From positions 10,714-74,713 of the forward strand of contig CAUVQU010000002.1 in assembly GCA_963554175.1 (NCBI GenBank): a stretch of 64,000 bases of DNA, given 5' to 3'. How positions within the stretch are numbered: the stretch's first letter is position 1; each line of letters begins with the position of its first letter. Both the position numbers and the translations under genes were made by a program. The DNA is from an uncultured Candidatus Saccharibacteria bacterium (GTDB lineage: Bacteria > Patescibacteriota > Saccharimonadia > Saccharimonadales > Saccharimonadaceae). This document shows, piece after piece, positions 17,128 to 61,535 of this stretch. The notes under the pieces are model-generated. The model was given only the letters and a program-made list of their open reading frames with translations, was not told the DNA's origin and searched no databases.

Positions 17128-17183
17128 ATATCGGTATCTAGAAGCTATAGCTTCAAAAATTGTTCTTTGAAAAGGAGAAGAAA

Positions 17184-24411: not shown

Positions 24412-24437
24412 AACCCCGGTTTCCCGGGGTTATTTTC
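24412..24437. terminator. Bidirectional intrinsic terminator
   Basis: aaccccgg tttc ccggggtt with flanking A-run and T-run. Confidence 0.7.
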
Positions 24438-28282: not shown

Positions 28283-28712
28283 AGATTTTGAGGAGCAGGT
28301 ATATTATGTCGAATCGGACCAGGATGAGTCGGTACTCGTGGCGGTGGGGTTAAAGATTCAGAGGAGTTCTCGTGATGGTGAGAATGTGGCTGGGGGTGTT
28401 GGCGGAGGTATTGGCAGTCACGAGAATGGATACAAACATGAGAATGGGAATCTGGGGGATGGCGGGGTATATTTTTTGGAGTGGTTTGACACTGTCTATT
28501 GGCGACGAATGACTGCGAGTGAGGTGTGGATGAAGAATGGTGAACTGTTTTTTAAAAGGATTGAGCCTGAAGGGGGTGGAATGTATCATTTTACGCCAAT
28601 GACTGTTGCGACCTATAATCAATTTGTGCGTGATGAATTGTTTGAGGCAAAAGATTTTATAGATGACGAAGAGGTGCGGCTGGCCTTTTTAAGGATGATA
28701 AAGAGAGTATAA
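28275..28712 (+). CDS. Small partner protein of module A (immunity/antidote-like?)
   Basis: 145 aa. ATG overlaps the upstream stop (ATGAATAG). VYYVESDQDESVLVAVG...RRMTASEVWMKNGELFFKRIEPEGGGMYHFTPM is homologous to 46697..47137. Confidence 0.75.
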   Translation: MNRDFEEQVYYVESDQDESVLVAVGLKIQRSSRDGENVAGGVGGGIGSHENGYKHENGNLGDGGVYFLEWFDTVYWRRMTASEVWMKNGELFFKRIEPEGGGMYHFTPMTVATYNQFVRDELFEAKDFIDDEEVRLAFLRMIKRV

Positions 28713-30032: not shown

Positions 30033-31529
30033 ATGGATAAAACTTTTCCAGGAGCGGATTTTGTACGATCGTCTCAAGATGAGAAGCCTATTCAGGAATA
30101 TAATGAAAAGATAGATGTGGATAAGGCTCCTCTCTCAGCTAATCCAGCTTATAATCTTGGAAAAATCACTATAGAGTCAATGAATTTTGAGGATTTGACT
30201 CCTGAGTCATCGATGGATGAGGCGGAAAAGGAATCTTCGGAAGAGCTGGTAAATGAAAAAATACCAGTCATGGATACGGCTGAGAGGTTAGCTGCAAGAC
30301 AGGAAAAGTTGAAAAAAGGTATAAAAATCGTAATTGGCGGACCTCCACATTCGGGAAAGTCGGTGTTCATTGAGGCTCTAACCCAAAATCTTGATAAAGA
30401 TAATACTTTTTCGTTTAGTGCAGCACCAGATGGCGAGGGGCCTTGGTTGCAGCGACATTATGATGATCCTGATGTGGTAAAATTGCGACAAAAAGGAAAA
30501 TTCACTCCAGAATATGTGGCTGATCGCAAAAAGAAGATCAATGATTGGGAAGGACCACTGATGATTATTGATGTGGGTGGTCGAACAAGTGAGGAGAATG
30601 CACAGATGATTGAGGGGGCGACACATGCAATTATCCTTGCTGGTGATCTTTCTAAGGTTGCGGAATGGCGTGATTTCTTTGAAGAAAACAATATTGAAGT
30701 TATTGCAAAACTGCATAGTCATTATCAGGGTAAAAAAGATATTCAGCGACCAGTGGAAAGCGGAGAAAACCATATAGTTAGCTCTGTACATTATCTCGAA
30801 AGGGGGGAGCCGGCTGCTGATCGTGAGACCATTAATCAGGTAGCGGGTTTGATTACTGGCATGGTTGAGGGGAATGTGGCTTATAAGCAGGCTCACGAGG
30901 GCGAAAATGCTAATCCATTTGAATTATCGATTTCAGATGTGTTTAAGGACTTACCAAGTGAAACTATCGAGAGAACCATAAATACCCTCGATGGGCAGCA
31001 GAAGATAATACAGAATAGGCAAATATTGCGTTCGGCGATTCCTCAAATTTATGAGAAAGCGCTTAGTTATGATGCGCAGCCGGCGTGGTTGAGCGGACCA
31101 GTTAATTCTTGGGAGGCCATTGCGTTAGCTATGGCATTTGAGGAGGCCGGTAGCACGGATGTTCGTTTGCGAAGTCCGGACGGATTTGTCTCGGTAAAGA
31201 GTTTACCTGAAGCTGAGGAGTTGGATACGAAATGGTGGATGGAACCAAGGCAGCAGGGTGAGATGGATGGTAAGCCAATTTATGTAGTGCATAATACTGC
31301 ACACGTGTCTAATAATCCAATTTCTCCAGCCGATCTCGAATCAATGACAGTACCGAAACTGCCAGAGGATGCAATTGTAGTTATTTCTACGCAAGGTCCA
31401 AACTGGTTGAAAGCATCTATTGCTGCAGGTTACCGAGGTAAAGTGGCTGGGATTGCTGCTTTTCAACCTGGTGAAGGTTCAACTATAGCTTGGGCTGCAG
31501 ATAAGAATAATCTTGGAAAAATTATATAA
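30033..31529 (+). CDS. P-loop NTPase with a C-terminal domain possibly related to Csx3
   Basis: Walker A VIGGPPHSGKSVF and Walker B-like LMIIDVGG. The C-terminal AWLSGPVNSWEAIALAMAFEEAGSTDVRLRSPDGFVSV resembles, from memory, the Csx3 core ISGRGPIWLHCFLAHKY..VAVYDPRLGAVVV. Confidence 0.6.
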   Translation: MDKTFPGADFVRSSQDEKPIQEYNEKIDVDKAPLSANPAYNLGKITIESMNFEDLTPESSMDEAEKESSEELVNEKIPVMDTAERLAARQEKLKKGIKIVIGGPPHSGKSVFIEALTQNLDKDNTFSFSAAPDGEGPWLQRHYDDPDVVKLRQKGKFTPEYVADRKKKINDWEGPLMIIDVGGRTSEENAQMIEGATHAIILAGDLSKVAEWRDFFEENNIEVIAKLHSHYQGKKDIQRPVESGENHIVSSVHYLERGEPAADRETINQVAGLITGMVEGNVAYKQAHEGENANPFELSISDVFKDLPSETIERTINTLDGQQKIIQNRQILRSAIPQIYEKALSYDAQPAWLSGPVNSWEAIALAMAFEEAGSTDVRLRSPDGFVSVKSLPEAEELDTKWWMEPRQQGEMDGKPIYVVHNTAHVSNNPISPADLESMTVPKLPEDAIVVISTQGPNWLKASIAAGYRGKVAGIAAFQPGEGSTIAWAADKNNLGKII

Positions 31530-31595: not shown

Positions 31596-31716
31596 GAGTT
31601 CTTTTCATATTTATTGGAAGAACTGCACTCTTAATGCTTAGCTTGAACTTTATATGATTATATTGTATAATATTTATGTATTTATAAACAAATTGGACAT
31701 TAAAAAGGAGGGGTAT

Positions 31717-32655
31717 ATGATAAATATTCATAAGTTTTATAGTGAGAAAGTAAATTCGATCACACATGTGGCACCGCATCATGCCGATGAGGTATTTGCA
31801 ACGGCTATGTTGTCTATATTATTCCCTGTCGAGCTTCTGAGGACGCGCGACCAGGAGATTATAGAAAATACAAAAGCCATTGTTTATGATGTCGGTGGCG
31901 AATTTGATCCTTTCAGAAAACGTTTCGATCATCACCAGAAGAGTTTCTCTGAAATACGTGATGATGGAATTAGCTACTCATCGGCAGGGCTAATTTGGCG
32001 TGAGTATGGTGCATCGATTGTAAAATCGATGGCTAAAACTAGGCCAATCGATGATGTGATGACTGCAGAGGTAGTTTCCTTAGTCGACGAAGCGCTGATT
32101 CGAGGTATCGATGCGAGAGATAATGGACAAGGAGAGAAGGAGGATTCAATGTCTGTATCCTCGGTGATTTCCGCCTGCAATTCCCTTTGGGATGAGAATG
32201 AAGATGCTGACATGTGTTTTTTAAGAGCATGTGATTTAGCGATCGCAATTCTTGTGCGTGAAATTAAAGTGGCGATTTCGACTATTCGTGGCCGCAAGTT
32301 GGTAGCAGATAAGATTAAGACTGTCGATGGACCTATTTTGGTAATAGATCAGTTTATCGGCGGTTGGCTTGAAGAAGTTCTTAATACCGACAGTCCGAAA
32401 GCTGCAAGTTTGTTGTTCGCAGTTTTTCCTGCTACAAACGGAGACTGGAATATACAGGCAATCCCTCCATCAAAAGAAGATATGATGGGGCAAAGAAAAC
32501 CATTTCCAGATGCCTGGCGTGGGCTGAAAGATGAAGAGCTTATAGAGTCTTCTGGAGTAGGCACGGCTGTATTCTGCCATAAGGCTGGATTCTTTGCAGT
32601 TGCTAAAACCAAGGAGGATGCTATTAGGCTTGCTGAAAAGGCAGTCAATAGCTGA
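31717..32655 (+). CDS. MYG1 / UPF0160 family metal-dependent hydrolase, paralog 2
   Basis: APHHADEVFATAML, KRFDHHQ, RGIDARDNG. ATG 31717 follows AAGGAGGGG. Colinear with 17184..18146. Confidence 0.75.
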   Translation: MINIHKFYSEKVNSITHVAPHHADEVFATAMLSILFPVELLRTRDQEIIENTKAIVYDVGGEFDPFRKRFDHHQKSFSEIRDDGISYSSAGLIWREYGASIVKSMAKTRPIDDVMTAEVVSLVDEALIRGIDARDNGQGEKEDSMSVSSVISACNSLWDENEDADMCFLRACDLAIAILVREIKVAISTIRGRKLVADKIKTVDGPILVIDQFIGGWLEEVLNTDSPKAASLLFAVFPATNGDWNIQAIPPSKEDMMGQRKPFPDAWRGLKDEELIESSGVGTAVFCHKAGFFAVAKTKEDAIRLAEKAVNS

Positions 32656-34077: not shown

Positions 34078-34204
34078 GCTATCACCTCCTCTATGGTGGA
34101 CGATATTGTTATATTATAGCATGGAATATTATTTTGTCAAGATTAAACGAAATGAGAATCAAAAATAGAAATTATAACCAAAGTTTTTATGCTATAGTTA
34201 AAAT

Positions 34205-37200
34205 ATGGAGAGTGGCAATAAATCAAAGGCAGACATTATTAAGAATAATGAGAATACTGAGACTGAAATTAATTGGGAAGACTTTAAAGAGGACGATGAC
34301 ATATTTGTGGCGACATTCGTAGCCCATGCTCTGCAAAAACAAAAAGTTAGAGAGAGATTTATTGACGGAAGAAAAAAATCTGTTCCAGAAATTCCTTATA
34401 AGTATAATCGAAGAAGAATTGAGCGAAATTTAGGCCATGTCGGTACTTCCATACTCGATGTTCGCGAGAAAACTACAGATAGGCAGGCTATAAGACAAGA
34501 ATTTAAGGATCATGGCGGGTTTAATATAGAGAACCTTGAGGATGAGAAGATTATCTCGCCTGAAAAAGTGTTTAAAAAATTTAATGGATTATTTACTTTC
34601 TTGGGCGAAAATACGAATGGTAATCCAAATCTATTAGAAGAATATAGGCAGATTGATGATAAAAAAGAAAAATTAAGGTTTATTCTAGAATCGTCTTTGG
34701 CTGATAAAGTCAGACTGTTTTATAATGAGTTAGAGTATCCAAATTATGATAATTTTTTACAACGGCTGCAGTTCCAACAAGATTTTATTAATGGAACAGC
34801 AAGGGTTTGGGATGATAAGTGGAATAGTTTGGCAGGAAAGTATGTTAAGGTTCAACGACTGCTTGATCCTGCTGAGGCTAATGTAAAGGATATATCACTC
34901 GGACTAAACCGGGCGTCATTAAAATCGGCAATGATTGGTACTCCAGAGTACGGTGCATATAAAATTGCTATGGATATAAAAAAGGATTATGACTTGAGAA
35001 AAACACCAGATTTTCCTGAGATCAACGGATACTGGTCTGGTATTACTAATACACGCATAGGTTCTTGGGAGACGATTATCGATGAGTATGGGGATATAGC
35101 TGACAAGATTGCTAAAAGAAATTCGGAATTGAATGAGGAAGAATTGGAGCATTTGACTGTTCGCAAAGTTGCTAAAATTTTCGCTGATTCGTTGGGATAT
35201 AATGATCCTGGTAGAGGGCCAGAGTCTCCTTATGTATCAAGATTCCACGAATCTGTAGCATGGGCGCAGTTAGGAGAAGGAGCTCAAAGACAGCTTCGAG
35301 GAATGCGGCAAAAAATCAGTTATTCTAATTTAAAGAATATAGAACGCTTTATCGGTAAATCTGGTTATTCGCAGAAGCGTAAGTCGTTTGAATCTGAAAG
35401 TGCGCGGTTAAAAGGTCGAGTGAAGCATATATTAGAACTGTCTAAAGACGATAAAGAGGCATTTTTGGTAAAAGAGAATGCGTTTGAGATAAAGAAACAA
35501 GAGGAATGGCGAGAAAAAGAAGTCGCAAGGATTAATCATAAATATAATAAGCTAATCGATAAAACTCGGAGCGAAGAACGTAAAGACGTTTTTGCGAAGC
35601 GACGGAAAGAAGAGGTTCGAAAAGTCACTATTGATACTTCGAGCCAAATTGAATATTTCGAGAATAGAACGTTAGATGGATTATTCTCTGATATTGAAAA
35701 GAGACAAGAACTACTTTCACGAAGAATTGAAAAACGGAAATCGTTAGCAGAAAAAGCGATTGATCTTCATTTTCAGCTGGAAGTTGATCAACAAAAATGG
35801 GATAATGACTCGGAGGAATATGTACGGGTCAAACCTTCTAGGTATAGTGTGTGTCTTGATTGGATTAACGATGCTCCTTTAGGGGTAATTAAACGATCGC
35901 ATAAGAGAATGGTCGAAGGGGTATCCGCTGATGATATCTATGTGCTTGCTATTGGTGATATATTCCAGAAAGTATTGAACGACTCAGAGCAGGTTGACAA
36001 TCTCATGTGGAGAATGTATGGCAATGACGATAATCTTGATGTATATGCAATTCGAAATATGGTACGTTTGGCTGGAAGGTTGTCTAAAAGTGGTGAAAAG
36101 TTAAGCTATTCGGAACTGGAAGCTATGTCTAAGCAAGATACTAGGTGGATAGAGGAGTCACTTGCAATGTTTCCGATGACTGATGTGAAGCGATTTCTTG
36201 ATAATGAGCTAAATCTTTCCCTTGTACCAAAAATAAGTCGCGTTGCTAATCAATTTGGATATAATTTAGATACTGATCAATTGATTAATCTCGCAAGTAA
36301 GAGAATAATAAATTCTTACTACTTTAAAACAGTGGAGAGTATATTTTCTTCTACTCTTAAAAATTTTTCATTAGAGGAAGCGATAAGCGCCATGGATGCA
36401 AACGTGGATTTGAGGGTTTTGAACAAAACTAGGTCAATTTTATCCACTGAGGGGATTACTGATTTTTCTGATATATTAGATCGAGCGACTAAGCTATGTC
36501 GGCTTTCTGATGATGAAGGTGGACATGAGAAGCTTATTTTAGATTATTGTAATGCTATTACATCTTTGGGATTAAAGAAAGCTGATATCTTACTAGCGAG
36601 AGGGGTTAATCTAGGTACATTTAATATGATATCTAGAAAATTTAGTAGTATTGTTGATGGTGATTTTGATAAAACCCTTGAGCTATCTGACAGGGTTAGT
36701 GCTATTTTAAATAAGCGAGGAGAACTAGACAAAGAAGAATCTTCCATTCGTACTTTACGTACTATTGACAATGGTAAGCAATATACAGAGATTCAAATAG
36801 CTGATTTATATAAATACGGAATTTTAGCTAATGATTATAAAGAGGTATTCATAAATTCTGATCGTGATAAAAACGATATCGTGAGAACGTATGAAAAAAA
36901 TAATCTAAATTTTGACGACAAAGTCAAACTATTAAAGAATTCCATGAGAGGTAGTTTTGAGGCATGGAGGATTAGAGAAGCTATTGAGCATTTTGATGAT
37001 GATGTGTTGCATAAGATTGCAGCGGAAGGTGCAGATGTTGTACGTGCTTCCAGGATTAAATATCTATTAAACAAAGAAGATAAATATGCGGAATTTAATA
37101 CTATGGAAAACGTATTATATTTGGCATCAAACAATCTAGATGTTGACGTTTTTCTACGTGCTACTGAAGCTGGTTTTAGTGTAGACGAAATTAAATTATA

Positions 37201-37246
37201 TCCATTCTTAGCTTCGGATTTATTAATTAAGGAAAGGACTAAATGA
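34205..37246 (+). CDS. Large helical hypothetical protein; first gene of the MoxR-VWA operon
   Basis: 1013 aa, no TM or signal peptide. Extended -10 TGCTATAGT (34190-34198) lies 6 nt before the ATG. Its stop overlaps the next start (ATGA). Confidence 0.75.
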   Translation: MESGNKSKADIIKNNENTETEINWEDFKEDDDIFVATFVAHALQKQKVRERFIDGRKKSVPEIPYKYNRRRIERNLGHVGTSILDVREKTTDRQAIRQEFKDHGGFNIENLEDEKIISPEKVFKKFNGLFTFLGENTNGNPNLLEEYRQIDDKKEKLRFILESSLADKVRLFYNELEYPNYDNFLQRLQFQQDFINGTARVWDDKWNSLAGKYVKVQRLLDPAEANVKDISLGLNRASLKSAMIGTPEYGAYKIAMDIKKDYDLRKTPDFPEINGYWSGITNTRIGSWETIIDEYGDIADKIAKRNSELNEEELEHLTVRKVAKIFADSLGYNDPGRGPESPYVSRFHESVAWAQLGEGAQRQLRGMRQKISYSNLKNIERFIGKSGYSQKRKSFESESARLKGRVKHILELSKDDKEAFLVKENAFEIKKQEEWREKEVARINHKYNKLIDKTRSEERKDVFAKRRKEEVRKVTIDTSSQIEYFENRTLDGLFSDIEKRQELLSRRIEKRKSLAEKAIDLHFQLEVDQQKWDNDSEEYVRVKPSRYSVCLDWINDAPLGVIKRSHKRMVEGVSADDIYVLAIGDIFQKVLNDSEQVDNLMWRMYGNDDNLDVYAIRNMVRLAGRLSKSGEKLSYSELEAMSKQDTRWIEESLAMFPMTDVKRFLDNELNLSLVPKISRVANQFGYNLDTDQLINLASKRIINSYYFKTVESIFSSTLKNFSLEEAISAMDANVDLRVLNKTRSILSTEGITDFSDILDRATKLCRLSDDEGGHEKLILDYCNAITSLGLKKADILLARGVNLGTFNMISRKFSSIVDGDFDKTLELSDRVSAILNKRGELDKEESSIRTLRTIDNGKQYTEIQIADLYKYGILANDYKEVFINSDRDKNDIVRTYEKNNLNFDDKVKLLKNSMRGSFEAWRIREAIEHFDDDVLHKIAAEGADVVRASRIKYLLNKEDKYAEFNTMENVLYLASNNLDVDVFLRATEAGFSVDEIKLYPFLASDLLIKERTK

Positions 37247-37596
37247 TGATAATTATTGATAATATTTCCCCGAAATTAGATAAAACAATAGCAATACATA
37301 CGAAGAAGAGTCTCGGTGCTACTGCTTCAGTTTGGCTGCATGAGATTGCAAGAAAACTAGAGGATTATAATCTACCAATAGAATGTTGGCAAATAGGAAA
37401 AGATGCTGTCGGAAATGAGATAAAAATTAATTGCTTAGGGAGGTTCTTATTCGGTGTCCCTGGTTATGATGGGCATCTAAGAGTGGTTATGAATGGAACG
37501 GAATTAACGATCTATTATCCTTCTGAACCAGTGGAGGTTGAAGGGTTGTTGAAAAGAATAAAATATGAGGTAGAAAACGGAGGCAGTCATGAATAA
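37243..37596 (+). CDS. Small hypothetical protein (117 aa); operon gene 2
   Basis: Overlaps both neighbours (ATGA at 37243; downstream ATG 37589 lies before its stop at 37596). Confidence 0.65.
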   Translation: MMIIIDNISPKLDKTIAIHTKKSLGATASVWLHEIARKLEDYNLPIECWQIGKDAVGNEIKINCLGRFLFGVPGYDGHLRVVMNGTELTIYYPSEPVEVEGLLKRIKYEVENGGSHE

Positions 37597-39640
37597 TAGT
37601 CCTGAACGATCTAAGGTGGAGACTGAGAAACAAGAACCAACAACGGCAGAAATTCAGAACAGGATGACTCGAACCAATAATTTGCTAACAAGGCTGCGTG
37701 CTTTTCCTTCTGATTGGGTGAGTAAAGCTGGCGAATCAAAGCAAGATGTTGAAAAACGACTTGAAGACGCTTTATCTAATATGAGCGTCATGCAGGAAAC
37801 CCTAAGTGTATCTACTATGCCTGCGGAAACGAATTGGGACACGTTAAGAAATATGTCGATGATCGACAAAAGAGAACAACAGTCTTCTACTGGTATTTTG
37901 CAGGAAAGAGTTGTATCAAGGGTCAATTCAAATACAGACAGGGTTAATGAATCGGATTTAGGTAATTCGAACATAGATATAACCAATGAATCAAACTTTG
38001 GCAACTCAGAGATAATAAAGGAACAACCAAGAGCAAAATTTTTTGAGGTCGACGGTACTTATATACCGATTATGCCAAAAGTATCACATGCTACGAAAGA
38101 ATGGGAGGCAGTGCCTAGTAGGATGATGATGTCTGGCGGAAAGAAATTTTCAGAGGTTAAATTTGTTAAAGATGAGAATGGTCTAACTACTGTTGCAAAA
38201 CCTGGCGAAAAAATGAATTTTATAGAAGGTGCCAAAAATGAAAGACTTGAGTCAATTGATACTCTTCTCTCTGGGCGACATGAACTGAAGACATTTAATT
38301 CAATTTATGAACAATTAGCAAATACTACCTCTGAGTATCGAGGACTTAATCCGGATAGTCCAGATTATGATCAACGTGCCACTGCATTAGCTGATATGAT
38401 AGATTCATTTACTACCCCAGAAGGAATTGCTTCCCGGATTACCGAAAAAGAGTCTGAGAAGCTTGAGGATGTAGAGGATTTTTCCGAGAGAGTGGCAGAT
38501 ATAATATCTACACTTCAATATTTAAGAGAAGTCGATCCTGGCCAGACGGAATTCATACCGCCAATCGATCACAACTATAAGATGACACCGTTTATTAGAA
38601 AGAAATTTGCCGAGTTTGCGCAACTCTTAAATCGCCAAATGGGCGTAGGTAACAATGCCTATATGGATGAATTAGTTTGCAATGAACAGGCACCAGCATG
38701 GGAAAAACTCTCGGCCAAAGGCATGACGGTGGTGGTAGGTCCTAGAGGTACTGGTAAAAATAAACTGGTAGATCATTATGCCTCAATTTCTGAAAGACCT
38801 CTGTTCAGGTACGCTTGCTCACCAGACAAAGAAGAGCGGGATTTGACATATGGCGTTGAATTGTCTGATGGTGAAGTAGTTAAGGTGCCGACGCGTATTT
38901 TAACTGCCATATCAACTCAGAACTCTATTCTTGAGCTAGATGAGATAAATCTATTGCGACCAAATGTGGCAAAATTCTTTAATTCCCTATTTGATGGAGA
39001 CCGGGCAGTCTTTTTAAATGATCAAGTAATACATGCGGCTCCGGGTGTAATGTTTGTAGGACTAATGAATCCAGCAGACTATAATGGGGTTGAGGATTTG
39101 CCGGAAACTATCGACGACCGTTCTAATATTATGACGATGGGTTATCCGCCGTTTAAAGAACGTAATCGTAATACTGGTGAAGAAACCTTTACGTATGATG
39201 AAGCATTAATCCTTAAGAATAACATCTCGCCGCTGCAAGGCTACTCTGATGCACAATTCGTACAGATTTGGGATCGCGTCGTGAATAGTCGCGGTCAAGC
39301 CGATGTTTCGCCAGAAGTTGTGAAAATTGTACGCGACCTCAAAAATATGGTTCTAATTGCAAATCGTACAAGACAAACTGTCGAAGCATACAAAACCCGT
39401 ACTGGCGATGCTCGAATGGAACGTGATATATCCTTACGTGGAATGAGTGAAGCGACAAGATATTATTCCGAGAACCATCTCTGGCAGCAAGATCTTTCAC
39501 GGCTGCCGGGCTGGAAAGCACCATGGAACGCTGCGCAGTATGCTATCGCGATGACTTATCTACCACATACCGAAACCTATCGCAAAGGTCAACAAGACAA
39601 GAATGCCATTGAAGCAATCTTGGCAGAGGGGGTTCGCTAA
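37589..39640 (+). CDS. MoxR/CbbQ-type AAA+ ATPase (AAA_5-like) with a roughly 370-aa N-terminal extension
   Basis: Walker A VVVGPRGTGKNKL, Walker B ILELDEINL, sensor region VMFVGLMNPADY. Confidence 0.75.
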   Translation: MNNSPERSKVETEKQEPTTAEIQNRMTRTNNLLTRLRAFPSDWVSKAGESKQDVEKRLEDALSNMSVMQETLSVSTMPAETNWDTLRNMSMIDKREQQSSTGILQERVVSRVNSNTDRVNESDLGNSNIDITNESNFGNSEIIKEQPRAKFFEVDGTYIPIMPKVSHATKEWEAVPSRMMMSGGKKFSEVKFVKDENGLTTVAKPGEKMNFIEGAKNERLESIDTLLSGRHELKTFNSIYEQLANTTSEYRGLNPDSPDYDQRATALADMIDSFTTPEGIASRITEKESEKLEDVEDFSERVADIISTLQYLREVDPGQTEFIPPIDHNYKMTPFIRKKFAEFAQLLNRQMGVGNNAYMDELVCNEQAPAWEKLSAKGMTVVVGPRGTGKNKLVDHYASISERPLFRYACSPDKEERDLTYGVELSDGEVVKVPTRILTAISTQNSILELDEINLLRPNVAKFFNSLFDGDRAVFLNDQVIHAAPGVMFVGLMNPADYNGVEDLPETIDDRSNIMTMGYPPFKERNRNTGEETFTYDEALILKNNISPLQGYSDAQFVQIWDRVVNSRGQADVSPEVVKIVRDLKNMVLIANRTRQTVEAYKTRTGDARMERDISLRGMSEATRYYSENHLWQQDLSRLPGWKAPWNAAQYAIAMTYLPHTETYRKGQQDKNAIEAILAEGVR

Positions 39641-39643
39641 TTT

Positions 39644-42600
39644 ATGCATGAGGGATTGCCAAAAAGTGGCAATGAACGAGTGGGTGGAAACGATCCGTTT
39701 AGTTTTGATACTCTGGAAGGTGAAAACACCGTTGAGTCTTCGATATCTTCGCCTGAGCAGGATCGAAAAAGAGTCGACTTAATAAGGGAAATCAATGAGC
39801 AGATACCTTTTCTAGCCTATGGCCTATCGGAAAAGATTCAACAGAGTGGTCTCGGAGGAAAGGTTTCAATACGCGGCATAATGGGGGATAGCTGGGGGGT
39901 AGGCGTAAGCAAAAATAATCCTCGAAAAGATATACCAAACATAGTAATTTATCCAGAGAGTATCCTGTCAGAAGAACGTGCAGTAACAAATGCACAACTT
40001 CGTCATGAAGTTGGAAATCTTAACCATTCGATCGACGGCGAAAAAGCAGATCTTGCGATATGGTGTAAGAAGAATAACCAAAATTATAAACTAATCTCGC
40101 CATTAGTTGAAGCTGTGCAGGAGGCATCTGTAAACTATTTAGAGATGAGGAACTCAATCTCGGACGATCCTGCAGCTGCTTTCAGACCACTATATGAAAA
40201 AATTATCCCAGTAAAAAGTATCGCTGAAAACATAGGTTCAGATCTTGAATATAAGCAAGCCGTAGACATGACCTTATTAAAATCCTTAAATATCGCTGGA
40301 CTAGTGGATTCTACGACGCTTGATATTGCCGATGGTAATCTTTCTGATGACGTAAGGGCCGCATTTTCTAATAAAACTAGCTCCGTCATTGAACAGGCTG
40401 TCAGAACGTCTTCTGGGAAGATTAGGGTGCAGCTAGTGAGAGATTATTTATGGCCAGAATTTGCTAAGCTTGTATCAGATTCGAATGTGACGAGTGAAGC
40501 TGAGACTGAAGATCAATCGAAAGTTAATCTTAATCAGAACAATAATATTGAACGGATCAACCGTAATGAACAAACGGTGCGTGCTTTTGATAATCAAAGA
40601 GTATTAGACATTATTGAAAAAAATCAAGTATTATCTCCGGAGGAGCAAAATGAACGAGCTTCTGTAAGTGATTCTCTTTTGGGTGAGATCGGGAGAAAGG
40701 TGGATGAACTATCTGATCAGTTATCCAGTCTAGATTCTGATAGTCAGAGTGAGGAAAATCAAGACAATGAAGATCGTATAGACCAAAGTGAAGAGATTCA
40801 GGAACAGCTTGAAAATCTTCAATCGCTTCTTGATGATTTGAAGAATCCTGAAAAAGCTTCCGGTGACGACTTAGAAAACTTGCAGTTTAAAATTAATGAA
40901 ATTGGAATAGACGAGTCGAGTTTAGATGAAAAAGAACTGAAACTACTTGAGAATCTTCGAGAATTCTGTAAATCTACTACAGTCACTTATGTTCGCACGA
41001 TGCGTTTTATCATGGAGGAATATAAAAGCTGTAACCCGAACTTTACGGACGAAATGATGGAAAAAATGATTCTTCATGGACACGATACGCCAAGTTTTAC
41101 TATCTATGGCAAGGAAGCCGGAGAAAACTTTATTGAAAATACTTGCCCTGAACTAGGTTATGGGGATTTTGAATCTAATGGCATGGTACTCAATTTTAAT
41201 CTTCCAGACGTGTTAGGTAGATTTTGGTATAGGGGTGGTAATGGTGCAAGGGCTCAATCAGTTCCAGATGGTGCCATAGAGTGGGGACACCTGTATCGAA
41301 ATGGAATGCCGGCTATTTGGAGATCGGTTGATTCCGCGCCAAGAACAGGTATCTATTTCAATCGCCTAAACGAATTTGGCCAGCACGATTACAGGAAATA
41401 TTATTATCTATATGATGTGATTGGTCTTGGTTCTAAATTCAATGAACAACAAGAAGCGGAAAATGATCTAGACGGTCAGAATGAATTACTGGAATCAGAT
41501 GTGGATGGTAATGGAGAATCCAATAACGACACTGACGGACAAAGCCAGAATGGCGAAATCGGCGAGGGGCCGCAACAAGATAATCAAAATGGATCTGATA
41601 GTGGCAGCGAAATGGGCCAAATGTCTGGTAGCGACATGGAACAAATGGGTGACACTGAAAGCTTTGACGAAATGAATGGCACGGAGATGGGTAATTTGGG
41701 TGATATGCAAAAGCAGTTATCTGATATGCTTAGCGATTTAGAGTCCTTGATGAGTGAACAGAGTAGCGAGATTAATCAGGCACTGACGGATGCTTTATCC
41801 AAGGCCATTGCGGAATCCTTATCCAATGATGCAATGTCAGATAATCATTCTGAGCACATAGACTTGGCAGAATTATTTAGCCAGCTACAAGAAACTCAGG
41901 AGAAGCTAGAAAGCTCATTTTCTGATGCGAAATCCGAGCAAGGTGGCTTTAGGGAATACGAGATAGATGATCAAGATATAGAGCCAGACACGGTTGAATC
42001 AATAGATAATCTTGAGGCTATAAAAGAGCAACAACAAAGACAGTTGGAGTCAATTTATCGTGAGCAATCAGGATTATCTGGTGAGGCTTTGGGTAGATAC
42101 ATAGATTATCGTGAGGATACAAGGGCTTTCACAGACGATTTGGTAACTTATTTTACCGAAAAATTTAAAATGGACACCGAATACGTATACGAAAAAAATC
42201 AACGCAGAGGTAATCGTTTACAGCGTGGGTGGACTAGTAGAATACTAGGTCGTACAGCCCTTGGTGCAACTGCTATAGAACCAGAAGTTTTCGAACGTAG
42301 ATCGATCCCGAAGAAACCTCAGTTCGTCTGGAGTGTAATAATCGATAATTCTGGATCTTGTAGTGGCGACATTATTGAAGAAGAAAAGAAGACAGCCGTT
42401 GCTCTGACAGAAGTAGCTAGTAGACTAAATATACCACTAGAAATAGTCACGTTTGGCGGCCCAAATGAATATACCTTCTTAAAAACATTTGATCAAGAAC
42501 TGTATGGCGATCAACTATCAAGATTAGTGCAACTTGGTGCCGATCAAAGTACGCCAGACGTTGTTACACTGAACGCTGCGTGTACTAGTGTAGCGGATTA

Positions 42601-42850
42601 CGCGGATAGCTTCAATCGACCATATAACTTTGTATATTTTATGACTGATGGTGAATCTGGGTCTGGTTCGATTCAATCGGTAATAAGTAAATTTAAACGT
42701 GACATGGTTATAACTGGAGTAGGATTAGCTGGTGCCGCTGACTCTATTTCAAGTACGTGGGGTAAGAATTCAGTTGGGGTTGAAGATGTTAGTAAACTGT
42801 CGGATACACTGATCCGTAAAATTGAAGATCAAATAGAGGAAACATTTTGA
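39644..42850 (+). CDS. Large protein with a C-terminal von Willebrand factor A (MIDAS) domain
   Basis: MIDAS DNSGSCSG...QSTPD...YFMTDGESG near the C-terminus. Two long Asp/Glu/Ser/Gln-rich low-complexity tracts in the middle. Confidence 0.75.
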   Translation: MHEGLPKSGNERVGGNDPFSFDTLEGENTVESSISSPEQDRKRVDLIREINEQIPFLAYGLSEKIQQSGLGGKVSIRGIMGDSWGVGVSKNNPRKDIPNIVIYPESILSEERAVTNAQLRHEVGNLNHSIDGEKADLAIWCKKNNQNYKLISPLVEAVQEASVNYLEMRNSISDDPAAAFRPLYEKIIPVKSIAENIGSDLEYKQAVDMTLLKSLNIAGLVDSTTLDIADGNLSDDVRAAFSNKTSSVIEQAVRTSSGKIRVQLVRDYLWPEFAKLVSDSNVTSEAETEDQSKVNLNQNNNIERINRNEQTVRAFDNQRVLDIIEKNQVLSPEEQNERASVSDSLLGEIGRKVDELSDQLSSLDSDSQSEENQDNEDRIDQSEEIQEQLENLQSLLDDLKNPEKASGDDLENLQFKINEIGIDESSLDEKELKLLENLREFCKSTTVTYVRTMRFIMEEYKSCNPNFTDEMMEKMILHGHDTPSFTIYGKEAGENFIENTCPELGYGDFESNGMVLNFNLPDVLGRFWYRGGNGARAQSVPDGAIEWGHLYRNGMPAIWRSVDSAPRTGIYFNRLNEFGQHDYRKYYYLYDVIGLGSKFNEQQEAENDLDGQNELLESDVDGNGESNNDTDGQSQNGEIGEGPQQDNQNGSDSGSEMGQMSGSDMEQMGDTESFDEMNGTEMGNLGDMQKQLSDMLSDLESLMSEQSSEINQALTDALSKAIAESLSNDAMSDNHSEHIDLAELFSQLQETQEKLESSFSDAKSEQGGFREYEIDDQDIEPDTVESIDNLEAIKEQQQRQLESIYREQSGLSGEALGRYIDYREDTRAFTDDLVTYFTEKFKMDTEYVYEKNQRRGNRLQRGWTSRILGRTALGATAIEPEVFERRSIPKKPQFVWSVIIDNSGSCSGDIIEEEKKTAVALTEVASRLNIPLEIVTFGGPNEYTFLKTFDQELYGDQLSRLVQLGADQSTPDVVTLNAACTSVADYADSFNRPYNFVYFMTDGESGSGSIQSVISKFKRDMVITGVGLAGAADSISSTWGKNSVGVEDVSKLSDTLIRKIEDQIEETF

Positions 42851-42866
42851 TTAAGAAGGGAGTATT

Positions 42867-43421
42867 ATGGAGGTAGTTAATGAAAAACTAGTTTTGGGGA
42901 CGCAATGGGGAGAGGAGAAAACAGGCGAGGTATTTGATTACGATGAATTTGGACAATACTTAGATGATATTGAGACTCAACTTTCTCCACGACATATACT
43001 GGATGAATTGAATGAGACTATAGATTCGGTAGAGAATGAGCTAGATTCGTATGATTCAAATATAATGTCTAGTAGTAAAGAGACAAAAAGAAAAATGGCA
43101 GTTGCAGCTATTGAATCGTATAATTTGAATCTGTTAGCTAGAGATGAGGATTTTAATGTTAGAACGCTGGCTTTATGTAATAAGGCTATTTCTCCGGCGA
43201 TTTTGGAGCAGACAATTGAAGATATTGGAAATGACGACAAATTCACTTTAATGGTGATAGCCAATAATCCAAGTGCTTCAACTAGACTCCTTGGCAGAAT
43301 ATATGATTTGGCTGGTGATGAAAGAGAGGTTCAGACGGCAATTCTAAGAAATCCAAATTGTGATGATGTTTTGCGGTTTAAAATTAATAGCCTAAGAGAA
43401 CGTGTCGGGGCTAGTATGTAA
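42867..43421 (+). CDS. HEAT/LRV-like repeat protein; operon gene 5
   Basis: NVRTLALCNKAISPAILEQ..., VIANNPSASTRLLGRIYDL..., EVQTAILRNPNCDD resemble leucine-rich-repeat-variant / HEAT-PBS repeats. Confidence 0.5.
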   Translation: MEVVNEKLVLGTQWGEEKTGEVFDYDEFGQYLDDIETQLSPRHILDELNETIDSVENELDSYDSNIMSSSKETKRKMAVAAIESYNLNLLARDEDFNVRTLALCNKAISPAILEQTIEDIGNDDKFTLMVIANNPSASTRLLGRIYDLAGDEREVQTAILRNPNCDDVLRFKINSLRERVGASM

Positions 43422-43501
43422 ATAGTACGCACTTATACGGTGTGGTTATCACGCTACGCTACCCTAATTCCTCGAGTGCAGCACTTCGAGACCTATAGAC
43501 T

Positions 43502-43534
43502 TCGAGTGGAGTCTTCCACTCGAGTCTCTTTCTT
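43502..43534 (+). terminator. Intrinsic terminator of the MoxR-VWA operon
   Basis: tcgagtgg (43502-43509) / ccactcga (43516-43523) plus gtctctttctt. Confidence 0.6.
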
Positions 43535-43821: not shown

Positions 43822-46665
43822 ATGAACCATAATTCATATCCATCAAATTACGAAAGTGAAAACGATAGCCAGCCAAATGATAACTATACAGAGTGGCAGG
43901 AGGCTATGAAAGATGTTGAGTTTCAAGGAGGTAAAGCTTCTGTCTCCATGGTAGGTCAAGAAGTGGCTGACATGCTGGCTGGCCCAGAAATTCATGAAAA
44001 ACCTGTCAGTAAGATGGAAAAACTACTTGGAAAAATCCAAGGTGTCAAAGATTTTATTAAAAGTAAGTTCGGAATACAAAGTAGCGAAAAACTAGTGAAA
44101 ATGACAGATCATGCACTTGTTTATGTTGCGAAAGAGACAATTACCGCCGCCGACAAAGATGGTATTCGCACTGAAGCAGAAGCTGCTAAAATTGAAGAAG
44201 CTGTTTCGTCCGTAGTAGTGCAAGGTGCTATGGAAGAAGCTGGCATGGAACAGTCTGCTGGAGAAAATCCTATTTTGGAACTTAACCAAAGTGATGCTCA
44301 ACTTGATTTGATGGCATCTATAGAGACTTTACACAAAGAAGGTGTAATATTGCCTAGCGGTGAAAGCGTTGCTGGACTTGCTACGCGTACTATTGAACGC
44401 GACAAAAAGTGGGATTTAACAAAAGTAAGTGGTCGGCTAGGCTCTAATGAGGGTGGTTGGTATGAAAAACCGAATGGCGAGAGATTCTATGTTAAGTTTT
44501 ATGAAAATCCTAGTCAAGGACAAGCCGAGTTCGTGGCTAATGCTGTTTATGCAAAACTCGGGATTAAAGCGGTACGTTCAGAAATTATCCAATTGGACGG
44601 TCGTGAAGCTATCGCTTCGCCAGCTGTGCCAAAGGCTACGACGGTTAGTGGAGAGGCTCAAGGCGGAAGTGAGGATGTCCAAAAAGGTTTTGTTGCCGAC
44701 GCGTTCCTAGCCAATTGGGATGTTGTCGGTCTTGTCTACGACAATATAGTTCAAGGAGAGGATGGTTTTTACCGTATAGATAATGGTGGTTCTTTGATTT
44801 TCCGGGCACAAGGTGGAGACAAGGCTTATTTGCCAAATTCTATTCCAGAGCTACAGTCAATGCGTGTACCAGGACGCCCCACTGGAGAAGTTTTTGCAGG
44901 CATAACAGAAGACGAAATTGGTAAGCAAGCGCGTGAACTAGTTAGCAAGTTGAGCCCTGAAGATATAAGAGCTATCGTAGATGAGTCTGGTCTAGAAGGC
45001 AAAGATCGTGATAGGATATTGACTGGATTGCTAGGACGTCGTGAATATCTAGCTAAGACTTATGGAAAACCAGAACCAGAGCAACCATCAAATCCAGAAT
45101 CTAGAGAGCGTAGACCGAGAAGAAGCATAAGTGAAACAATCAGAATACTTAGCGGTCAAGAGATGGAACGTACTGGGGAAACAGTAGTTCGTCCCCGAAC
45201 CGAAATTGTATGCGATCATGATCATATCGAAGGGCAAAAAATCGATGTAATAAACAAAAGAGATCGCGGTACGATGGAATTTAGATTTAAACTGCGGGCT
45301 CCAACCGAAGTACTGACAGCATTGGCGACAAAACCGGAAGGCGAAGGAGAGGATACGCAAACTGAAATTACCACGCCAAGTGGAGCAGTTTTGCGACGAG
45401 GAAAAATTACTTACGAAGATGCGTCTTCTGATAGTTCATATGAGTTATGCGGTGCGTCCGTTTTTGAAAAAGGCGGAGTAAAAATATTTATTGCAGACCC
45501 CTCGTCTAAAAACGGCATTACCTATGATTACAATAGTAGTCATCTTGTCCGAACGGCTATGGGTTTAGTTAAGGTTGAAGTTCCATCTGGAACGGATCCC
45601 GAAGCAACGGAACAAATTTTGGAAGAAATTTTAGAAAAAGACTTAGGTATTCCAGATGCGCTTGGCGAAGTCCCTGAAGAAGCGGAAAGAGAATATAAGA
45701 TGGCTCGCTATAAATGGCAACATGTAATTACTGGAGATTTAACACCTGAGCAGATGGAGCAAGCGGAAAAGTTATATCGCGAAGAAGTCTTCCCTGGCTA
45801 TACAACACTCGTAGAGAGGGGAAAACATGAAGAATACCTTGAAAAATATGGCAGAGATGTTCGCGCAGTTCATCGCTTAAATACTGAGAGCGCTAGATCG
45901 ATTTATAGAATACTAACACAGGGGTTGATGTGTACGACTGAACGATATTCTAGAGGTGTCATGAGGAATGGCATGTCGTCCACTATTGATATGGATACTG
46001 GTGGAGCAGACAGCGTTTTTACGAGAATTGCCAATGAGGCTCAAAGAGGAGAAATGAGCGGTGCAGTGATAGTATTTAAGCCCGAAGTTTTCGATCGCAC
46101 AGATTGGTATTCCTATAATTATGACACATGTGGCTCAACAGATGATGATTATTTTGCTTGGCGACTCTCTCCAGATACTATCTTTGATAAGACTACAAAT
46201 CCTAACAGTAATTATTCAATCGGAAATGAACAGATGTTTAGAACTGGTATCGGTGCTGGGTTTGTTGAATCCATAGAAGTAGATTCCAGTCAACGTAATG
46301 GAATAATTGCAGAATTACGATCTATGGGCCTAGAAGAAATAAACGGTAAACCCATAGAAGAAGTTGTCGTATTACACAAGACTCCGCCTTCGGAAGCTAC
46401 GCCAGATTCTAATGTCAATTGGGATGTATCCAACCAGTCGCCAGAGGAATCATCTCAAGAGGTCGCTCCAGATTCTAATGTCAATTGGGATGTATTCAAC
46501 CAGTCGCCAGAGGAATCACCTCAAGAGGCACAACCAGAGACGACACCAGAGACACCATCCTCAGAGCTATGGCAAGATTGGCCAGATGATTGGGGAAACT
46601 GGGATGAAAGTTTTTCAACTCCAACCCCAGAACCACCATCGGAATCGGTTGATGGTTGGATGTAG
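43822..46665 (+). CDS. Large protein with protein-kinase-like motifs and a conserved C-terminal domain (module copy B)
   Basis: 947 aa. LGSNEGGWY, FYVKFY, AEFVANAVY, DAFLANWDVVG..YDNIV, YRIDNGGSLIFRAQGG, QGLMCTTERYSRGVMRNGMSS..DMDTGGADSVFTRI, GNEQMFRTGIGA. Carries an extra Pro/Glu/Ser/Trp-rich C-terminal tail. Confidence 0.8.
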   Translation: MNHNSYPSNYESENDSQPNDNYTEWQEAMKDVEFQGGKASVSMVGQEVADMLAGPEIHEKPVSKMEKLLGKIQGVKDFIKSKFGIQSSEKLVKMTDHALVYVAKETITAADKDGIRTEAEAAKIEEAVSSVVVQGAMEEAGMEQSAGENPILELNQSDAQLDLMASIETLHKEGVILPSGESVAGLATRTIERDKKWDLTKVSGRLGSNEGGWYEKPNGERFYVKFYENPSQGQAEFVANAVYAKLGIKAVRSEIIQLDGREAIASPAVPKATTVSGEAQGGSEDVQKGFVADAFLANWDVVGLVYDNIVQGEDGFYRIDNGGSLIFRAQGGDKAYLPNSIPELQSMRVPGRPTGEVFAGITEDEIGKQARELVSKLSPEDIRAIVDESGLEGKDRDRILTGLLGRREYLAKTYGKPEPEQPSNPESRERRPRRSISETIRILSGQEMERTGETVVRPRTEIVCDHDHIEGQKIDVINKRDRGTMEFRFKLRAPTEVLTALATKPEGEGEDTQTEITTPSGAVLRRGKITYEDASSDSSYELCGASVFEKGGVKIFIADPSSKNGITYDYNSSHLVRTAMGLVKVEVPSGTDPEATEQILEEILEKDLGIPDALGEVPEEAEREYKMARYKWQHVITGDLTPEQMEQAEKLYREEVFPGYTTLVERGKHEEYLEKYGRDVRAVHRLNTESARSIYRILTQGLMCTTERYSRGVMRNGMSSTIDMDTGGADSVFTRIANEAQRGEMSGAVIVFKPEVFDRTDWYSYNYDTCGSTDDDYFAWRLSPDTIFDKTTNPNSNYSIGNEQMFRTGIGAGFVESIEVDSSQRNGIIAELRSMGLEEINGKPIEEVVVLHKTPPSEATPDSNVNWDVSNQSPEESSQEVAPDSNVNWDVFNQSPEESPQEAQPETTPETPSSELWQDWPDDWGNWDESFSTPTPEPPSESVDGWM
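46402..46533 (+). repeat. Two tandem copies of a 66-bp in-frame repeat
   Basis: ccagattctaatgtcaattgggatgta(t/c)... occurs at 46402 and 46468. It encodes PDSNVNWDV(S/F)NQSPEES(S/P)QE(V/A) twice. Confidence 0.85.
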
Positions 46666-46696
46666 AGTATAATATTAACATAATATAGGTAAAAAG

Positions 46697-47137
46697 ATGA
46701 GATCATTTGAAAGTATCATGAAGCACTCAGGGAATGAGAATATTAATGGTAAAGATAATAATATAGAAAAGGTTGATTCTATGGAAAAATTGCCAAAGCC
46801 AGTTTACTATATTGAATCCCCCAATGACGATACGGTCTTAGTTGGCATAAACGTAACTATAGATCACGATAGAATGGGCGAGCAAGAAATCTCTATAATT
46901 AGATGGTATGATACTTCGCATGAGCGCATTATGACAGCATCGGAAACAAGGCAAAAAGATGACCATTTTGCCTTTAAGCGGATAGACCAGGAAGGCGGTG
47001 GGGTATATTATTTTACGCCAATGAATTTAGAGATTTACAATAATAAAGTTAAGCAGCACCTAGCTGCAGGATCTGACTTTACAAATAACGAAGATTTAAT
47101 AAAGGCATTCCTAACGACAACAGAAGATGAAGTTTAG
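46697..47137 (+). CDS. Small partner protein of module B
   Basis: 146 aa. PVYYIESPNDDTVLVGI...ERIMTASETRQKDDHFAFKRIDQEGGGVYYFTPM is homologous to 28275..28712. Confidence 0.75.
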   Translation: MRSFESIMKHSGNENINGKDNNIEKVDSMEKLPKPVYYIESPNDDTVLVGINVTIDHDRMGEQEISIIRWYDTSHERIMTASETRQKDDHFAFKRIDQEGGGVYYFTPMNLEIYNNKVKQHLAAGSDFTNNEDLIKAFLTTTEDEV

Positions 47138-51422: not shown

Positions 51423-51538
51423 GTGAAATGGAGCGGTTATATTATCGAAATTATTCTTCCCTCTCGAACCACAAGATCTGGGATTCGTGGTATAACTTAT
51501 AGTAAGGATATTTATAAAGTTAATTGTGGAGGAATATT

Positions 51539-57478: not shown

Positions 57479-57517
57479 AATTTGATTTCATGAGGAACGC
57501 AAAGGAGATTAAGGCTA

Positions 57518-58588: not shown

Positions 58589-58595
58589 TAGTGCT

Positions 58596-59372: not shown

Positions 59373-59407
59373 GTAAAGATCTAGACTTTAAGTGGTACAA
59401 TCATATT

Positions 59408-61531: not shown

Positions 61532-61535
61532 ACAA

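Follow-up and report, generated by a model that had tools for sequence, protein, structure and literature searches.

The five genes and their products

The DNA analysed here, referred to throughout as the window, is a stretch of 64,000 nucleotides from Candidatus Saccharibacteria (assembly GCA_963554175.1, contig CAUVQU010000002.1, positions 10,714 to 74,713, forward strand). Its forward strand carries a compact set of five genes, g1 to g5, around a MoxR-class AAA+ ATPase and a VWA/MIDAS protein, for which an earlier note on this DNA had proposed a translationally coupled operon. The five open reading frames (ORFs) of that proposal returned with identical coordinates in a six-frame ORF list: g1 at 34205-37246 (1013 residues), g2 at 37243-37596 (117 residues), g3 at 37589-39640 (683 residues), g4 at 39644-42850 (1068 residues) and g5 at 42867-43421 (184 residues). 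All of the tight junctions were likewise borne out by direct reading of the sequence, with an ATGA overlap of g1 and g2 at 37243, an 8-nucleotide overlap between the g3 start codon (ATG at 37589) and the end of g2, a gap of 3 nucleotides (ttt) between g3 and g4 and one of 16 nucleotides between g4 and g5. Coupled translation of the five genes as one operon is supported. The five proteins are all soluble and acidic, without a transmembrane or hydrophobic segment in any of them. Family scans (Pfam, NCBIfam, PADLOC, PHROG) returned an AAA_5 match, a weak VWA match, a weak LRV_2 match, two PHROGs and nothing else, the PADLOC matches being at chance level (E of at least 1e-3, to unrelated regions of JetA, PDC-S68 and HamB). 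Comparison of all ten pairings of g1 to g5 by hhalign found no common adaptor domain.

Residues 381-511 of g3 matched Pfam AAA_5 (PF07728) at E=1.8e-17, and the nearest solved relatives of this core were NorQ (8e-11) and then CbbQ, in agreement with the MoxR/CbbQ-like core that had been claimed for this protein. The core also matched phrog_249, annotated 'porphyrin biosynthesis' (6e-12), which we take to be CobS-like. It is preceded by an N-terminal extension (residues 1-370) and followed by a helical lid (about 530-683). The extension, of roughly the length stated by the earlier note, is kept throughout the family and is therefore a genuine part of g3. In an alignment of 14 orthologues with identity down to 44%, Walker B LELDE (D451, E452), sensor-1 N494, R511 and R617 were invariant. 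The AAA_5 domain, Walker B, sensor-1 and arginine residues of the MoxR class are thus all present in g3, with a deviating Walker A motif. The latter reads GPRGTGKN (residues 384-391, window positions 38738-38761) and aligns to NorQ as GPrGtGKn vs GPTGCGKT, N391 being invariant in 14/14 orthologues. With hardly an exception, P-loop NTPases end Walker A in a Thr or Ser that normally coordinates Mg2+. N391 suggests an unusual handling of nucleotide or metal by g3.

The VWA domain of g4 lies at the C-terminus (residues ~895-1068), behind a pre-VWA segment. Its match to Pfam VWA (PF00092) over residues 898-1028 had E=8.5e-4, below the gathering score; 11 of 17 orthologues matched the same family, at best with 2.7e-6. 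The MIDAS motif DNSGS (D901-S905, 42344-42358 on the forward strand) is completed by T970 and T1001-D1002-G1003, and among the orthologues D901, S903 (S/T), S905 and T1001-D1002-G1003 are invariant or conservatively replaced. The orthologue matches together with these conserved columns bear out an intact MIDAS in a VWA domain at the C-terminus. This domain is the final part of the protein in each of the 17 aligned orthologues, and its last residues (…QI.xTFD) are conserved. Upstream of it, g4 consists of a conserved helical domain (~105-280, with invariant N116-A117-x-L119-R120-H121), a coiled, acidic segment (~300-410), a second conserved alpha/beta domain (~415-600) and an acidic low-complexity linker (~600-800) with a net charge of about -46. 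The MIDAS motif and the position of the gene beside that of a MoxR protein mark g4 as a VWA adaptor by sequence, whose layout of N-terminal body, acidic linker and C-terminal VWA resembles that of CbbO, NorD and CobT. A g4 profile gave nothing of use among PDB sequences, with a C-terminal profile the best PDB sequences were weak matches to CobT (E=0.042 and 0.37), and the sole PHROG match was to phrog_1576 (residues 600-964). For the N-terminal region no family was found in Pfam, NCBIfam, PADLOC or PHROGs, and Foldseek of an AlphaFold model of residues 1-610 (mean pLDDT 72.6) against the PDB gave nothing at E<1e-3. We considered that this region might be a degenerate zincin with an invariant RHExGN helix, comparable to the DUF2201-type peptidase-VWA fusions of jumbo phages. 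This idea was rejected for now because orthologues do not keep the second His (consensus RHEIGNLNY) and neither Pfam nor the fold comparison gave a match.

The two small proteins gave fewer clues. g2 is soluble, carries an invariant motif GR(W/F)LFGVPG...H.R and has no match to a family (Pfam, NCBIfam) or a PDB sequence. g5 is an acidic helical repeat protein. The HEAT/LRV label given to it by the earlier note is weak, as the LRV_2 match stayed below the cut-off (E=4.7e-4, 20.5 bits, cut-off 27); three NP-x6-L, LRV-like repeats are nevertheless visible in the alignment, and the orthologue at locus L001 was likewise a weak match to LRV_2. A g5 profile had no match among PDB sequences.

g1 is soluble and nearly all-alpha: its AlphaFold model, based on an alignment of 38 sequences, is almost wholly helical (mean pLDDT 82, pTM 0.62), as the earlier label 'helical protein' had implied. 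An N-terminal module (residues ~90-555, 34472-35869 on the forward strand) contains the motifs MIGTPEYGAYK, ESVAWAQLG, RGMRQKI, RFIGKSG and IDWINxAP; within it, residues 390-526 are modelled as ~130 residues of long paired helices. Residues ~555-1000 form an array of ~55-residue helical repeats, seen in an hhalign self-comparison (E=3e-19, shift 55), and the number of repeats differs among orthologues of 761-1045 residues. No family was matched in Pfam, NCBIfam, PADLOC or PHROG, a g1 profile found nothing usable among PDB sequences, and Foldseek of the model against PDB and BFVD returned nothing at E<1e-3. Matches to tape-measure proteins in BFVD (TM-score about 0.07-0.1) were discarded as generic long-helix similarity. 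The earlier note had asked whether the large proteins resemble clients of known MoxR/VWA pairs; no such client was matched, and the models of g1 and of g4 1-610 correspond to no solved fold.

The g1 superfamily comprises 187 representatives among 1.84 billion clustered proteins. The g1-type N-terminal module also begins Patescibacterial proteins of more than 1200 residues (1280-1760), which are encoded away from the cassettes and of which 10/19 end in GNAT (acetyltransferase) domains. These long proteins (P0182, P0198, P0201 and relatives; loci L042 and L043) have a conserved Cys-rich region with …DTGCCMT…MDNIEANQGRD… and lack the C-terminal tail described below. In a related gut Saccharibacteria lineage at 77% g3 identity, multiple independent lesions were seen across 18 assemblies. 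They comprise ±1 frameshifts in g1 at five positions (L012, L045/L046, L104-L106), most of them in short A/T homopolymers and on contigs that include coverages of 48x and 97x, a g3 frameshift (L017/L053) and a g4 nonsense codon (L016). One of the g1 frameshifts, at residue 981, would cost the protein its tail. The lesions could be decay, phase variation or assembly error.

The cassette in other genomes and the C-terminal tail

A collection of 5.8 billion proteins contained 113 homologues of g3, of 600-760 residues, all spanning the N-terminal extension and with at least about 50% identity. The cassette was found in 34 loci when one genome was taken for each of 185,579 GTDB species, and a metagenome scan added 60 further loci. 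The locus set was collapsed to 43 non-redundant loci at 95% g3 identity, and gene presence was scored by tblastn. In the same order and orientation, g4 was present in 37/37 assessable loci, g2 in 38/41, g1 in 26/32 and g5 in 23/27; profile hidden Markov models (HMMs) revealed additional copies of g1 and g5 in L102, L095, L093 and L040. The genes g3 and g4 were adjacent at all 37 assessable loci. This five-gene order is far beyond chance, and the concern raised by the earlier note, that the order might recur in no other genome, was answered by its recovery in 43 loci. g2 was undetected in three loci whose tail-bearing partner has no g1-type N-terminal module, and since g5 persists where g1 and g2 are missing, it is part of the minimal core.

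The window matched Candidatus Saccharibacteria metagenome-assembled genomes (MAGs) at 99% identity. Other Patescibacterial carriers are Parcubacteria/Paceibacteria, Gracilibacteria (including a closed chromosome of 1.93 Mb), Peribacteria, Magasanikiibacteriota, Zambryskibacteria, Moraniibacteriota and Falkowbacteria. Outside this group, carriers are Peptococcaceae, Desulfosporosinus and Synergistaceae, together with MAGs labelled Gammaproteobacteria, Pseudomonadales or Bdellovibrionales, some of these labels being unverified; the contigs of such MAGs (Gammaproteobacteria and Bdellovibrionales labels) have a GC content of 38-46%, like the Patescibacterial loci. Full-length g3 identity of at least 50% spans Patescibacteria classes, Peptococcaceae and Synergistaceae.

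The last ~30 positions of g1 matched the C-termini of other proteins within or beside the cassettes when the g1 profile was compared with the loci. The tail of g1 (residues ~980-1012, 37142-37240 on the forward strand) reads LRATEAGFSVDEIKLYPFLASDLLIKE and is a candidate recognition tag. Across proteins the motif is [LI]-x-A-G-F-[ST]-x-x-[ED]-[IL]-x-x-[FY]-P-F-L-x-S-x-L, of which g1 has the version …AGFSxEEIxxFPFLxSxL with E995 at the invariant acidic position, and in aligned termini it ends ~10 residues or less from the stop codon. An HMM of the tail was applied to the cassette loci, 96 g1 homologues and the window. It matched solely at extreme C-termini, with E=1e-14 to 1e-18, and found a single copy in the window, in g1. 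All g1 orthologues of cassettes carried the tail. Among the 96 g1 homologues it was present in 72 and absent from the other 24, which include all 18 proteins of more than 1200 residues and, with them, every GNAT-type relative of that length. The last ~12 residues of g1 have low pLDDT, so that the end of the tail may be exposed.

The same tail was found on proteins whose bodies are unrelated to g1. Four of them are embedded in cassettes (208 residues in L006, 536 in L068, 523 in L030 and 511 in L092), proteins of 634 and 639 residues lie just 3' of g5 at two Peptococcaceae loci, and a protein of 168 residues adjoins g5 in Synergistaceae. The loci in which a neighbour of g5 bears the tail, L003, L021 and L022, are exactly those without g1 and g2. 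BLAST among these proteins gave similarity confined to ~25-45 residues of the tail. Tail-tagged partners number one to three in other genomes, and their bodies are quite different. Because a constant motif sits on variable bodies, always with the core and never without it, we read the tail as a handle that would be recognised via the MIDAS, the ring pore or g5, and which probably marks the partner proteins as targets of the machine.

Several loci depart from the common layout. A Gracilibacteria genome (L002/L033, OY760177.1) has two tandem g1 paralogues of 1044 and 1045 residues, both tailed, and a g4 of 1692 residues; its cassette is followed by a gene for an AAA_14/DUF4143 protein and by Ntox44/DUF5412 toxin-immunity-like genes. 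In L018 (176-3103) an unrelated coiled-coil/TPR-like protein of 975 residues, without a tail, occupies the g1 position. In L040 (5069-7693) g5 is fused to the N-terminal side of a protein of 874 residues. Two loci (L084, 5202-7679; L102, 14889-17618) share, 3' of the cassette, a conserved protein of 826 and 909 residues, respectively (43% identity), with a weak HD-domain match.

All-against-all clustering of flanking ORFs gave large serine recombinases (5 loci) as the sole recurrent neighbour. The commonest Pfam families in 124 proteins flanking other loci were Resolvase/Recombinase (4), DNA methylase (3), ParB_N (2) and Zeta toxin (2), the remainder being housekeeping. In L006/L007 the cassette lies within a conjugative element with VirB4, TrbL, TrbC, a coupling protein, a relaxase and a serine recombinase, and in L107 it is flanked by two serine recombinases and ParB-methylase genes. 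Another Saccharibacteria lineage has it at a different chromosomal site, between tmk/udg and serS/hpf, and in Synergistaceae ordinary metabolic genes surround it. A general linkage to type IV secretion system (T4SS) genes was rejected, as these occur in the L006/L007 element only, among >100 loci. Neither 50,697 phage records (INPHARED) nor IMG/VR contained the cassette, and 72,556 plasmids (PLSDB) contained the generic AAA core only, at ~30% identity and at most 30% coverage; a phage or plasmid origin was discarded, since no full-length relatives came from these three collections. The conserved gene order, the lack of any other conserved neighbour and the conjugative and recombinase contexts argue that the cassette is a rare, self-contained and horizontally mobile accessory unit.

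In the window, the start of g1 and that of a divergent ORF of 111 residues share an AT-rich intergenic region of 127 nucleotides (34078-34204). A purine-rich, Shine-Dalgarno-like run lies 5' of the starts of g2 to g5, in contrast to g1, which has none. A promoter scan upstream of g1 gave a perfect -35/-10 pair on the minus strand only and, on the plus strand, nothing strong among the matches listed. As a TATAGT box (within 34186-34207, forward strand) ends ~7 nucleotides upstream of the g1 ATG, the g1 mRNA may have no leader or a very short one. A terminator-like hairpin with a 10-bp stem and a T-rich tail (43501-43534, forward strand), 80 nucleotides past the g5 stop codon, is the likely end of the operon.

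On both sides of the cassette lies a copy of a two-gene module (25784-28712 and 43822-47137). Its large proteins, of 832 residues (25784-28282) and 947 residues (43822-46665), are paralogues with 48% identity, and its small proteins, of 145 (28275-28712) and 146 residues (46697-47137), share 33% identity (E=1e-25). The earlier note had called these modules kinase-like, a label that found no support, as no kinase or other family was matched in any library searched: the large proteins had no match in Pfam, NCBIfam or PHROGs, and the 947-residue protein none in PADLOC or PDB sequences either. The module is not present at the cassette loci of other lineages. Further genes in the window encode a 498-residue protein with a C-terminal Csx3 domain (30033-31529, E=1.3e-6) and two MYG1-family (UPF0160) paralogues (17160-18146 and 31654-32655), the second directly 3' of the Csx3 gene; Rfam gave no CRISPR repeat family in the window, a dedicated repeat search not having been run. 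On the minus strand at the edge of the accessory region, 24436-25482 encodes an unusual fusion of 348 residues that joins a sigma-70 region-4-like part to an RNA polymerase alpha C-terminal domain. Downstream of the cassette, a defence-type island (51524-63203) contains a type III restriction-modification system (Mod, 51524-53359; Res, 54368-57478) with a RhuM-family gene in between (53359-54384), two adjoining FtsK/SpoIIIE-like ORFs that look like one split gene (57518-59372), a GmrSD-type endonuclease (59408-61531) and an Hsp70-family protein (61536-63203). No Rubisco, nitric oxide reductase (NOR), carbon monoxide dehydrogenase (CODH) or CobN/BchH family was found in the window, in the annotated flanks of eight loci or among the 25 commonest families listed for the 124 flanking proteins, which confirms for these surroundings that no usual metabolic client is adjacent.

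A candidate remodelling machine and alternative explanations

In the scheme known from CbbQO, NorQD, CobST/BchID and Rea1, one or a few VWA adaptors attach to a MoxR ring, the MIDAS ion captures an acidic residue of the client, and ATP hydrolysis remodels the client. By analogy, the anatomy of the cassette fits this scheme, with g3 as the ring and g4 providing the docking body, the acidic tether and the MIDAS head. We tentatively read the five genes, with somewhat less than an even chance of being right, as one self-contained, cytoplasmic, ATP-driven remodelling machine on a mobile accessory cassette that engages tail-tagged partners. g3 would form a MoxR/CbbQ-type AAA+ ring and g4 would be its dedicated adaptor, the N-terminal body docking on the ring as in CbbO and NorD. 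The long acidic linker would tether the VWA head, whose MIDAS metal ion would grip an acidic residue of the target. Targets would be the tail-marked proteins, here g1, of which E995 is a natural candidate MIDAS ligand; alternatively, the tail might enter the ring pore or bind g5. g5 would be the constant third subunit of the core, probably a docking or regulatory partner, and g2 would go with the g1-type partner. Hydrolysis of ATP would finally drive the helical-repeat protein that bears the tail into another conformation or state of assembly. The earlier note had taken both large proteins as likely clients: for g1, with its cassette-specific tail, this is plausible, whereas g4 is the VWA adaptor itself and not a second client.

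A wider proposal, possible and on balance doubtful, is that the tail is a portable tag bringing diverse payloads to a dedicated MoxR-VWA-LRV motor, as part of an undescribed mobile, tag-directed remodelling system for conflict or effector control, centred on Patescibacteria. For the machine in general, a role probably related to conflict or to mobile elements is suggested by variable tagged payloads around an unchanging core, a patchy distribution, the island and mobile contexts and the neighbourhood of restriction-modification, GmrSD and Csx3 genes.

Several observations weigh against the remodelling machine or its proposed role. The first half of the tail (AGFSxxE) resembles the internal repeats of g1, and because of this the tail could be a conserved terminal cap, or specialised last repeat, of a shared helical-repeat domain. 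The tail-bearing proteins have no enzymatic or effector domain recognisable by Pfam, and two loci (L018 and L035) carry g2-g3-g4 with no detectable tail-bearing protein. The Thr/Ser of Walker A is replaced in g3 by an invariant Asn, and ordinary ATPase chemistry is therefore not guaranteed. As to conflict, no recognisable effector, no PADLOC defence match and no defence enrichment at other loci was found: in the 124 flanking proteins, the top PADLOC families listed were essentially all methyltransferase models with at most 3 members each, and enrichment in defence islands outside the window, considered as a possibility, was not borne out by them. The biological role is a guess.

The strongest rival, though unlikely, is anti-phage or anti-mobile-element defence of the NTP-dependent conflict type. 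Here the MoxR-VWA pair would be a threshold switch and g1, or another tailed protein, the sensor or effector that infection would release. Predicted conflict systems with a MoxR-vWA core are established (PMC7159879), and the island in the window, with its Csx3-domain protein, type III restriction-modification system with RhuM and GmrSD, would suit such a function. So would the rare, patchy, horizontally spread occurrence, the variable tagged partners and g1 repeat number around a constant core, and the independent g1 frameshifts in natural strains, as expected of a costly accessory gene. However, a PADLOC match to any defence family is absent, and Pfam found no nuclease, protease, TIR or other effector domain. 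There is no VMAP, iSTAND, FtsH or beta-propeller third component, VMAP-C not having been compared directly, and, unlike in the systems of PMC7159879, the VWA domain is C-terminal and the partner region conserved, not variable. Flanks at other loci are mostly housekeeping, and the core proteins are strongly conserved, not diversifying. The idea of an unrecognised conflict-system variant, put forward by the earlier note, is allowed by these data, but the defining features of the ternary systems, an effector domain, a PADLOC match and enrichment in flanks elsewhere are lacking.

It is quite improbable that the cassette helps to assemble, as a chaperone, a cytoplasmic filament or scaffold made of g1-type helical-repeat proteins, by comparison with the MoxR-VWA pair on which tail development of Acidianus two-tailed virus depends or with GvpN in gas vesicles. 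MoxR-VWA pairs are documented as assembly chaperones of viral structures (cited in PMC7824862). The length and helicity of g1, with the paired helices at 390-526 and the repeat array, would fit a filament subunit, and Pfam placed an enzymatic domain nowhere in the cassette. Against this, Foldseek found no filament protein at E<1e-3, the tape-measure similarity amounted to TM-scores of about 0.07-0.1, viral contigs and phage genomes lack the cassette, and g1 is replaceable by unrelated tailed proteins of down to 168 residues.

Still less probable is a tail that serves as export or translocation signal, the MoxR-VWA pair, as chaperone or unfoldase, passing tagged effectors to a secretion or conjugation apparatus, for instance to deliver them to host or recipient cells. 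A motif at the extreme C-terminus of variable bodies does resemble C-terminal secretion signals, one cassette lies among VirB4, TrbL, TrbC, T4CP (coupling protein) and relaxase genes, and the carriers are mainly Patescibacteria, a group with many epibionts. But that single conjugative element stands against >100 loci, recurrent secretion genes were not found in the flanks, and the tail always accompanies the MoxR-VWA core and not a transporter; MoxR-VWA pairs are also not known to act as secretion chaperones. Finally, a chelatase-like machine for metal-cofactor insertion, analogous to CobN-CobS-CobT, BchH-I-D or NorQD with g1 as large substrate-binding subunit, is very improbable: the phrog_249 match of g3, the weak CobT matches of g4, an acidic linker before the VWA domain as also present in CobT and BchD, and the three-part layout of large protein, AAA+ and VWA protein speak for it, but g1 has no similarity to CobN/BchH by Pfam or fold, no tetrapyrrole, NOR, CODH or Rubisco genes adjoin the examined loci, the carriers are metabolically reduced Patescibacteria, and g1 is replaceable by unrelated proteins and frameshifted in some strains.

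If the tail-engaging machine is the right reading, its interest would lie in client choice. MoxR-VWA pairs are widespread, the client is known for only a handful, and how clients are chosen is a long-standing gap. Here the apparent client has its gene in the operon itself and carries a short C-terminal mark that can be transplanted, which makes its recognition directly testable. The cassette is also among the few multi-gene accessory modules common to Patescibacteria and Firmicutes- or Synergistetes-type bacteria. Being shared in this way, and carried on elements that are conjugative or flanked by recombinases, it is informative on how genes enter and leave the candidate phyla radiation. Should it turn out to serve conflict or effector control, the known range of MoxR-vWA conflict systems would gain a new architecture.

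Comparison with known MoxR-VWA systems

No description of the cassette was found in the literature on MoxR/vWA proteins in conjugative elements or Patescibacteria and on CobS/CobT in anti-defence, and it falls under none of the described MoxR-VWA systems. With CbbQ-CbbO and NorQ-NorD it shares an AAA_5 core closest to CbbQ/NorQ, a partner with a large N-terminal body and a C-terminal VWA/MIDAS, and adjacent, coupled genes. Unlike in these pairs, g3 has its 370-residue N-terminal extension and a Walker A with GKN in place of GKT/S, g4 is the larger adaptor and has two additional conserved domains plus an acidic linker of ~200 residues, no Rubisco or nor genes are nearby, and the cassette adds g1, g2 and g5 and lies on mobile islands. 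Likeness to CobS-CobT(-CobN) consists in the phrog_249 match of g3, the weak CobT match of g4, the acidic linker before the VWA domain and three components that include a large third protein. In contrast to CobS-CobT, there is no CobT/CobT_C Pfam match, g1 is all-alpha and unrelated to CobN, and a cobalamin context is missing; a further difference, from the phage 'CobS/CobT' pairs, is that phage genomes and viral contigs yielded no cassette. Since the client linkage that defines CbbQO, NorQD, CoxDE and the chelatases was tested and found absent, the cassette is not assigned to any of them.

The four MoxR-vWA ternary conflict systems of Kaur et al. (2020, PMC7159879) have VMAP, iSTAND, FtsH or a beta-propeller as third component and, behind the vWA, variable effector domains, and they show enrichment among multicellular lineages. 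The cassette resembles them in its MoxR + vWA core, its extra conserved partners, its sporadic horizontal spread and variable proteins that seem to be recruited to a constant core, a theme reminiscent of effector-associated domains. It differs in a VWA domain that is C-terminal behind a conserved body, in the absence of recognisable effectors, in its partners g1, g2 and g5 and in its hosts, mostly unicellular Patescibacteria. No NTPase, FtsH or propeller match was found for g1, g2 or g5 in Pfam, NCBIfam or PADLOC, and no variable effector domains C-terminal to the VWA were found in g4 orthologues.

RavA-ViaA is likewise a MoxR AAA+ and VWA pair without a metabolic client gene nearby. Unlike g3, RavA belongs to another MoxR subfamily with a LARA domain, and comparison of g3 with PDB sequences did not return it; ViaA is small, and the pair has no partners like g1, g2 or g5. 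Rea1/Midasin, a eukaryotic remodeller in ribosome assembly, has AAA_5-type ATPase modules, then a long stretch of helices and a D/E-rich segment, and at its C-terminus a MIDAS domain by which it holds a conserved glutamate on small adaptor domains of its substrates. g3 and g4 reproduce this order of elements across two polypeptides, a likeness at the level of domain classes. Midasin, in contrast, is one giant polypeptide with six AAA modules, and its substrates use ubiquitin-like (UBL) domains, not a C-terminal tail. The cassette would work like a MoxR-VWA chaperone pair with its own set of partners and a tail-based way of linking them to the machine.

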